Source: Octopus sinensis
Taxonomy: Eukaryota
Reading direction: 5' to 3'
Assembly: GCF_006345805.1 (NCBI RefSeq)
Contig: NC_043015.1
Span: 14,012,001-14,076,000 of the forward strand
DNA: 64,000 nucleotides
The translations under genes and the position numbers were made by a program. A model generated the notes under the pieces. It saw nothing but the letters and a program-made list of their open reading frames with translations, did no database searches and was not told where the DNA came from. Shown here piece by piece: positions 48,740-50,238 of this stretch (within the stretch, counting starts at the first letter, position 1; the number at the start of each line of letters is the position of its first letter).

Positions 48740-48938
48740 AAGGCGGTGAGCCGACAGAATCGTTAACACGCCGGGTAAAAAGCTTAGCGGCATTTCGTCC
48801 GTCTTCACGTTCAGGGTTCAAATTCCGAAGAGGTCGATTCTTATCTTTCATCCCATCGGGGGTCGAAAATAAATAGGTACCGATTGAATACTGGGGTCGA
48901 AATAGCCGACTTACCCTCCTCTAAAATTTTTGGCTCTG
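48740..48938 (+). mobile_element. SINE family B interrupted near its 3' end by the Mutator-like element
   Basis: AAGGCGGTGAGCC head and core; tail resumes after 50247. Confidence 0.82.
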
Positions 48939-50238
48939 GGATCTTTTCCTTTTGATAGCCAGATTTCAACATAATTTCTAGTTAACTAAAACACTTTAAA
49001 ACTTCGTATACTGGTAGAATGTGTCAAAAGAAAACATTATTTTCACTTGGCTTTTTTGATAAATTTGTAATTCGTTTGTTTAACGTAGTTTAATTTTTCG
49101 AATTTTAACCAATCCTATGCTCTCTTTTGAGCTGAAATTATTTGCTGCGTTATCGATATTGATAAACAAACGAGGAGAGTTGTGTTGGCATGTGCTAGAA
49201 ACAACACCCATATCTCTTAAATCGATGAATTTCGTCGCCCAATAAAAATATTAACGATATTTTTTGAATATTTTCTTTATTTTTTTTTTACCAAAAAGGC
49301 TTCTCCCATGGTTTTGAAGGGCCAAAAACAACAAAAACAAAACAATAATATGCCTAAATCGGTCTAGAGTGGGATATGAGGGTGCGTGGAGTGTGGGTCG
49401 TATTGTAAACATTTACGAAATATTTTTTCATAAAAGGATGCCCCAGCTTGTCGGAGGCTGTGATATAAATTGGGGAAAAAATCCTCGACACCAGTGCGTA
49501 ATTGGTACTTAATTTATCGACCCCGAAACGATGAAACATTGATCCCCCATTTCTGGTTTATTTATCTTTTGTGTAAATTTGTTCCGGCAAGGGGCTCTAT
49601 CGACACCAGTGCGTGCGTGCGTAACTGGTACTTAATTTACCCCTAACCCTAACCCTAAACCTAACCCCTAACCCTAACCCTATCGCGTGACAGCCTTCCG
49701 GCATCGGTCGCTAGCTTTGGTTAGGTTTAGGGTTAGGGGTTAGGTTCAGGGTTAGGGGTTAGGGTTAGAGGTTAGGTTTAGGGTTAGGGTTAGGGTTAAG
49801 GGTAAGGTTTAGGGTTAGGGTTAGAGTTAGGGATAAATTAAGTACCAGTTACGTACTGGGGCCGGTCTAAACAACGGCAGTAATTCGTTATCGATATTGA
49901 TAAATAAACGTGAATTTACTAATAATCGTAAAGAAAAAAAATCCCACCTTGGGGCCGGTAGGTTAGCCCGACATCGAACTCACGAACACTACATTACGAA
50001 CAAAACGGATGTTGTCTCAGTTTTTAGACGCAGCAAATGATGTCAGCTCAAAAGAGAGCATAGAATTGGTTAAAATTCGAAAAATTAAACTACGTTAAAC
50101 AAACGAATTACAAATTTATCAAAAAAGCCAAGTGAAAATAATGTTTTCTTTTGACACATTCTACCAGTATACGAAGTTTTAAAGTGTTTGGTTAACTAGA
50201 AATTGTGTTGAAATCTGGCTATCAAAAGGAAAAGATCC
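48939..50238. mobile_element. Mutator-like (MULE) non-autonomous element, 1.3 kb
   Basis: about 210-bp TIRs beginning GGATCTTTTCCTTTTGATAGCCAG; perfect 9-bp TSD TTGGCTCTG at 48930-48938 and 50239-50247. Confidence 0.92.
49641..49832. repeat. (CCCTAA)n - about 36-bp spacer - (TTAGGG)n telomeric cassette
   Basis: C-strand tract 49641-49682, G-strand tract 49719-49832. Confidence 0.95.

Follow-up and report, generated by a model that had tools for sequence, protein, structure and literature searches.

Short interstitial telomeric sequence in the surveyed part of the Octopus sinensis genome is mainly transposon cargo. In a census with a TIR library that included subfamilies first noticed for their tracts, an inward-facing TIR of one DNA transposon family lies within 900 bp of 59 of 69 perfect (TTAGGG)3 tracts, as against 3 of 85 control windows from Merlin-gene loci. 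The preliminary description of this DNA had proposed to determine what fraction of interstitial telomeric sites falls within the family, and this fraction is high. A member of the family is a 1.3-kb element at 48939..50238 of the window, the whole stretch of 64,000 nucleotides analyzed here. We consider it probable that this is a TIR transposon without coding capacity that a Merlin transposase likely mobilizes in trans. Its telomere-bracketed cassette likely arose when one arm, made of SINE and telomeric sequence, was duplicated in inverted form around a chip captured from the rDNA spacer, and the cassette is likely passive cargo. The family-level cargo result is stronger than the cassette finding, and it is the part worth following up.

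The assembly contains 12,929 overlapping matches to perfect (TTAGGG)3. The census is based on 91 of them, all in C1:1-63 Mb (one contig, 2.3% of the assembly; the last 9 of 100 listed matches, at 3 sites, were left out), and matches on the same strand within 300 bp were merged, yielding the 69 tracts. The 59 family-associated tracts comprise 57 found by blastn, one from earlier sampled loci, and one read by eye. Among the remaining ten, one belongs to a second GG-ended family, four share their interior with subfamily A, and five look unrelated. A rough pattern rule assigns 37 of the 57 elements to type C, the commonest tract-bearing subfamily, 13 to type A, 7 to type B, and none to the cassette type; 47 of the 57 have a single tract, and 10 have an opposite tract upstream. 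The tracts are inherited along with their flanks rather than inserted independently at each locus with a tract-only empty ortholog. Long arrays such as the one on contig C25 form a different class from the short census tracts. A 25-kb cluster of telomeric tract starts outside the census range (G000:C1:75756580-75781022) is probably a long interstitial array.

A sample drawn by TIR motif (first 30 matches, 26 loci) contains 7 loci with clustered telomeric hexamers inward of the TIR and 19 loci without them; the tract share of 27% is a floor, since the motif misses most of subfamily C, the most tract-rich one, whose TIR differs at this place. At least four tract layouts can be distinguished: a single off-centre tract in subfamily C, a single central tract in subfamily A, tracts inside both TIRs in subfamily B, and the cassette. 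The closest sister subfamily has TG microsatellites at the cassette position, other subfamilies carry CA, TA, or TG microsatellites, and tract-free subfamilies have also transposed, with intact 8-bp target-site duplications (TSDs). The second GG-ended family (L051, L324) has 8- or 9-bp TSDs and a tract module related to that of subfamily C; in L051 (2709-2975) the order is G-then-C, the polarity opposite to that of the cassette. The preliminary description inferred that the telomeric repeats are a built-in module, a view that it took to be refuted if most members lacked them. A telomere-bracketed module throughout the family is not supported, given the 19 tract-free loci that form the majority of the sample (in which subfamily C is under-represented), and both the TG microsatellites of the closest sister subfamily and the predominance of single-tract census elements speak against it further.

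The tracts are likely passive cargo. An unlikely alternative is that they constitute a selected module that helps the elements, for instance by recruiting telomere-repeat-binding proteins that would protect the ends after excision, assist synapsis, or conceal the element from silencing. The recurrence of tracts in four family layouts and in a second TIR family is a counterpoint to the passive reading, being more frequent than pure accident would suggest; a module would also agree with the contribution of the commonest tract-bearing subfamily to the census (37 of 57 sites) and with the location of subfamily B tracts just inside both TIRs. However, 19 of the 26 sampled loci do without tracts, and the number and polarity of tracts vary (single in 47 of 57; G-then-C in L051). 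Tract length in cassette copies ranges from about 2 to 18 perfect hexamers, and the CA, TA, and TG microsatellites of other subfamilies are carried equally well.

The element in the window is genuine, young, and non-autonomous, and it is likely a Merlin. Its TIRs (48939-49150 and 50028-50238) are 97% identical over 212 bp, and its parts, together with a second family member from the window, are as follows.

48930..48938, + strand: left target-site duplication, 9 bp, present once at the X2 empty site
48939..49150, + strand: left TIR, 212 bp, starting with GG
49151..49484, + strand: non-coding backbone common to the TG-microsatellite sister subfamily, with 771 first-look candidates in the genome
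49193..49216, + strand: 24-bp chip that recurs in the two subterminal inverted repeats of a Merlin transposase element (21/24 here; E 0.011, weak)
49485..49536, - strand: SINE piece 1, 52 bp, 88-92% to SINE copies within the window
49600..49639, - strand: SINE piece 2, forming the outer portion of the inner palindrome's left arm
49640..49682, + strand: degenerate (CCCTAA)n tract of about 7 units
49683..49718, + strand: 36-bp core, composed of two pieces of the GC-rich repeat behind 28S rDNA that are joined with loss of the 32 bases between them
49719..49832, + strand: degenerate (TTAGGG)n tract of about 18 units with a 19-bp higher-order period
49832..49859, + strand: SINE piece 3, which repeats piece 2 in inverted form and joins the telomeric tract at the same base
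49860..50027, + strand: right interior; 49886-49910 within it is a 25-bp direct copy of 49148-49172
50028..50238, - strand: right TIR, 97% identical to the left TIR
50239..50247, + strand: right target-site duplication, the same 9-mer as at 48930..48938
16492..17281, no strand assigned: second member of the TIR family, more diverged (75-79% to the TIR) and with an eroded left end
16776-17003: single central (TTAGGG)n tract of this second member (layout A)

The TSD of the window copy is TTGGCTCTG, found both at 48930-48938 and at 50239-50247. The empty site is provided by a 450-base contig of run X2 (another organism, B), which joins 48929 straight to 50239: its bases 1-145 map to 48786-48929 and bases 146-217 to 50239-50310, the 9-mer is present once, and the entire element is absent. 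The left and right junctions of the filled site are spanned by contigs of runs X1 and X11; in this read-based support 49632-49838 was masked as repeat, so the cassette itself lies outside the mapping. Run X14 yielded no coverage, an outcome without weight, and in RNA runs at most 0.22 of the sequence words were present (0.28 in one run presumed to be RNA). The longest stop-free frame in the element has 67 codons; no coding frame was found in it, for a Merlin-type DDE_Tnp_IS1595 transposase or otherwise, and a coding role was rejected. The element inserted into a SINE tail (48741-48930); this SINE copy is related to the one that supplied the element's SINE pieces. A stretch at about 50620-51330 looks, by eye, like a decayed LINE reverse-transcriptase fragment.

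From the 9-bp TSD and the long TIRs, the preliminary description had assigned the element to the Mutator-like elements (MULEs). The part of this assignment that stands is a non-autonomous long-TIR DNA transposon with captured host pieces; the Mutator identity is not supported, as 9 bp is the TSD length in 3 and 8 bp in 38 of the 43 end pairs having any TSD (8 or 9 bp in 41 of 43). The full set of 63 end pairs, in which some rows are alternative pairings at one locus, contains 38 TSDs of 8 bp (26 exact, 12 with one mismatch), 3 of 9 bp, 1 of 7 bp, 1 of 11 bp, and 20 pairs with none. In census elements with two ends (n = 33), 23 TSDs are of 8 bp, one of 8 or 10 bp, and one of 10 bp, and 8 elements have none; a length of 8 or 9 bp therefore applies to 23 or 24 of the 25 TSDs. 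Thus, the 9-bp TSD of the window copy is a rare case within a family that is large, with 2433 first-look candidates for the TIR in the 2.72-Gb genome and 4277 exact matches to one 27-base TIR motif.

The TIR termini are GG on both ends in the window copy and its sister copies. Merlin elements are defined by GG ends and 8- or 9-bp TSDs (PMC8101967), and the TSDs of MULEs span 8-11 bp, with 9 bp in most of the groups listed in PMC6446971. The genome contains 690 candidate Merlin transposases, of which 150 were scored; Merlin transposase elements of this genome show GG ends and 8- or 9-bp TSDs, and one resident Merlin family shows both TSD lengths. Because of the 8-bp TSD majority and the GG ends, Merlin is a better fit than Mutator, and the superfamily of the element, judged by its ends and TSDs, is likely Merlin. 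The TIR length of 212 bp falls within the Merlin range of 24-462 bp, and since long TIRs are also MULE-like, it is not diagnostic. The 24-bp chip, matched at 23/24 in the sister copy L003, occurs in a Merlin element whose transposase is confirmed by Pfam; the possible link to Merlin is weak, because the family takes chips from many repeats.

We regard as improbable a variant of the same history in which the mobilizing enzyme was a Mutator-type (or hAT/P) transposase rather than Merlin. Long TIRs, captured host DNA, and TSDs of 8-11 bp fit MULEs, MULE domains are present in the genome (215 candidates), and the 9-bp TSD of the window copy is genuine. However, the 8-bp majority, the rarity of 9 bp, and the GG ends match the resident Merlins; none of 41 MULE matches has family TIRs on both sides or an intact TIR-TSD pair; and the 24-bp chip is common to the subterminal repeats of a Merlin element. 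The hAT and P elements have 8-bp TSDs with CA/TA-type termini, a pattern that the GG termini of the window family do not match.

A Merlin source of the transposase is our preferred reading. The autonomous partner envisaged in the preliminary description was not found: no transposase bracketed by family TIRs was seen in 90 of the 150 scored Merlin matches (L031-L060, L103-L142, and L404-L423, 14 of them again with wider flanks) or in 41 of 88 MULE matches (21 of the 41 viewed with 1.5-kb flanks only), and no partner emerged from 11 family ends traced 9 kb inward or from a tblastn search with Merlin proteins over 227 loci carrying the family. Where family TIRs lie near transposase genes, they were separate insertions, and a broken Merlin gene after a family TIR at C9 proved to be part of a family whose ends are different. 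Members of the window family frequently sit inside one another or inside other Merlin-type elements (L351, L334, L200, L112). Some Merlin elements are near-perfect palindromes with two inverted (part-)copies of the transposase gene (L106, L107, L108, L352), and the window itself contains a Merlin transposase relic (55326-55577; tblastn E 4e-16). The outer 103 bp of the family TIR also form head-to-tail satellite arrays at C20:17025448-17026711 (L253) and on C9699 (L254).

The preliminary description of the cassette itself was accurate. The structure (CCCTAA)n-36 bp-(TTAGGG)n lies inside the TIRs with the C tract on the left (49640-49682) and the G tract on the right (49719-49832), the polarity of a tiny linear chromosome, and the inverted flanking SINE pieces form a nested inner palindrome with 66-nt arms that are 88% complementary (fold z = -8.9 vs 200 shuffles). 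The pieces are presumably SINE-derived, given the tRNA-like head of the copies in the window. Both tracts are degenerate rather than perfect, and the G-strand tract holds one canonical four-G-run motif. They are not a chance occurrence, because the two hexamers are found 15 times in the 1.3 kb of the element, compared to 0.15 per kb across the rest of the window. As the same description implied, sister copies inherit the cassette: 21 core matches (0-2 mismatches) at 20 loci show the identical layout within the TIR family. An assembly artefact is ruled out by this shared layout and by the empty site in run X2.

By its sequence, the 36-bp core is derived from rDNA spacer-type DNA, because its donor repeat accompanies 28S on contigs C25, C2, and C18. 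The search for the core yielded 12 exact matches and 30 at up to 3 mismatches; besides the 21 in cassettes, the other 9 sit in a GC-rich repeat of about 220 bp, adjoining 28S fragments. An Rfam scan detected 28S rRNA 3' fragments inside the GC-rich repeat arrays on C25 and C2 (3 matches, 14 loci), and on C18 the repeat unit is found 0.85-1 kb behind 28S matches, which include a full-length one. The best core matches are in dispersed rDNA-derived arrays, not in a full-length rDNA unit. The donor match, shared bases included, covers 49681-49722; the core consists of two donor pieces joined at a shared CGC with 32 bases missing, and its ends meet the telomeric repeat in register, the shared bases being TA at the left end and GGTT at the right end. 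Other identities of the core were rejected: a structured RNA (no Rfam match at the element locus), a tRNA (none detected in the 64-kb window), and a part of a nested MITE (the core traces to the rDNA-associated repeat).

On C25, a 4.75-kb degenerate (CCCTAA)n array (G000:C25:28869422-28874180; L250 4923-9680) is followed directly by rDNA-spacer repeats and 28S fragments, which make up 14 kb after the telomeric array and lie about 50 kb from the contig end. This may be a real telomere-rDNA junction placed internally. A full-length 28S gene in L255 (C6303) has a much lower GC content (about 44%) and is only 75% like the chromosomal copies, and unplaced contigs contain distinct Merlin and MULE families; these odd 28S, Merlin, and MULE sequences may come from a second organism.

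The cassette is a patchwork of one small subfamily, not a mini-chromosome module. Most likely, the apparent mini-chromosome goes back to a single inverted duplication, produced by template-switching repair and since passed on to about 20 copies. The two arms have an identical starting base in the SINE in nearly all cassette copies compared (16 rows, 15 elements), and a 19-bp higher-order unit is common to them. A single inversion event is preferred because these identical outer junctions and the common unit are unexplained by two independent telomerase additions. The 19-bp unit has no matches among the 430 hexamers of the 4.75-kb C25 array; in subfamily B it recurs in the same register with two bases different. 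Interior inversions are frequent in the family, as in the palindromic interior of L028 and in a whole cassette duplicated in reverse on C30.

The proposed scenario is excision of a family member followed by refilling of the gap through template-switching repair. The repair would have copied short pieces of abundant repeats via 2-4-base microhomologies, namely a SINE, the rDNA spacer, subterminal DNA of another Merlin, and a telomeric tract already in a sister subfamily, and would then have folded back, so that the arm was copied in reverse. The product would be mobile, since transposition requires the TIRs only, and its tract lengths would have drifted afterwards by slippage. The linear-chromosome polarity would follow from the inversion, making a telomerase step unnecessary. 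We infer template switching from the microhomologies together with what is generally known of gap repair at the donor sites of transposons. A backbone tree of 38 rows places the 17 cassette rows without exception in one supported clade of 22 rows, intermixed with 3 TG-type and 2 other rows (5 label changes on the best tree); the mean pairwise difference amounts to 4.5% among cassette rows, as against 5.0% between cassette and TG rows. The tree, which is weak (22 of 35 inner branches open; midpoint-rooted for drawing only), allows but does not show a single gain of the cassette followed by loss or exchange.

Another origin of the bracket, which seems unlikely to us, is telomerase healing: a broken piece of the rDNA spacer would have been capped at both ends and then captured whole as a relic mini-chromosome. 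The core ends join the repeat in register via the shared TA and GGTT, as telomerase would give too, but in-register microhomology would be equally expected under template switching. On C25 the (CCCTAA)n array abuts the spacer array with the polarity of one cassette junction, and some cassette repeat variants are also found in that array. However, the two outer junctions fall on one and the same SINE base and both arms have the 19-bp unit missing from the C25 array, whereas independent additions should differ, and the 30 core matches include no telomere-flanked core outside the transposon. Under the preferred reading, that of an inverted duplication, the cassette is a record of element assembly, with SINE, rDNA-spacer, and telomeric pieces joined via microhomology and inversion.

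The broadest claim is distinctly unlikely, namely that a Merlin-type radiation is the main source of interstitial telomeric DNA, that the tracts are kept as a selected module recruiting telomere-binding proteins, and that thousands of tracts next to transposase break sites seed new telomeres and rearrangement. The observation that the surveyed tracts are mostly cargo has consequences of its own. The usual reading of short interstitial telomeric sequences is that they are scars left by chromosome fusion or by telomerase action at breaks. With 59 of the 69 surveyed tracts moved by one DNA transposon family, their counts or maps would mislead on chromosome history. At the same time, near-identical, dated tracts from across the genome, for which empty alleles exist, become a resource for testing what internal telomeric repeats do.

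Several known systems resemble the family in part. Pack-MULEs have long TIRs and host fragments from several sources. Together with other non-autonomous MULEs, they are similar to the window family in having long TIRs around such captured fragments, but here the majority of TSDs are of 8 bp and the cargo consists of repeats, not gene fragments. Capture of host fragments is described in PMC6446971. Non-autonomous elements of the Merlin (IS1595/IS1016-related) superfamily share with the family GG termini, 8- and occasional 9-bp TSDs, TIR lengths within 24-462 bp, and internal tandem repeats, inverted duplicated ones included (PMC8101967). The same source reports that Merlin is abundant in an octopus, and its table lists an Aplysia Merlin with a 6-bp repeat by period only. 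The family differs from these elements in its telomeric repeats and its cargo of rDNA-spacer and SINE chips; the text of PMC8101967 has no match to "telomer," and hexamer matches in its supplement occur in bulk sequence files only.

Short interstitial telomeric sequences of vertebrates are likewise short internal tracts with junctions in frame with the repeat (PMC8537989). In that study the TERC-flanked sites showed no transposon enrichment, and transposons were judged not to be spreaders of tracts, whereas here 59 of 69 tracts are within one transposon family. Insertion of the tracts by telomerase at each locus is not supported: the in-frame junctions are present but non-specific, the empty site lacks the whole element, and the tracts are inherited with their flanks. 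In nematodes, 1,229 tracts were counted, and the portions of PMC9071541 that bear on them draw no link to a TIR family. No report of a mollusc TIR family supplying most interstitial telomeric tracts emerged from the open papers searched, and elements of the family may well already exist as entries in repeat libraries such as Repbase and Dfam. Internal tandem repeats in Merlin elements, MITE-borne microsatellites, and the TBE elements of Oxytricha are already known. The TBEs, like the window family, are DNA transposons with the host telomeric repeat and a large copy number; they differ in being autonomous Tc1/mariner elements whose target duplications are ANT and whose TIRs have the repeat at their extreme termini (PMC4724952). 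A TBE type was rejected, as the tracts of the window family are internal, vary, and are missing from many of its members, and its TSDs are of 8-9 bp. Finally, GTCY in insects and Xstir in Xenopus are also tandem repeats spread by small TIR elements (PMC6947457); in the family described here, the repeat is telomeric, and the end of the TIR also forms a 103-bp satellite.
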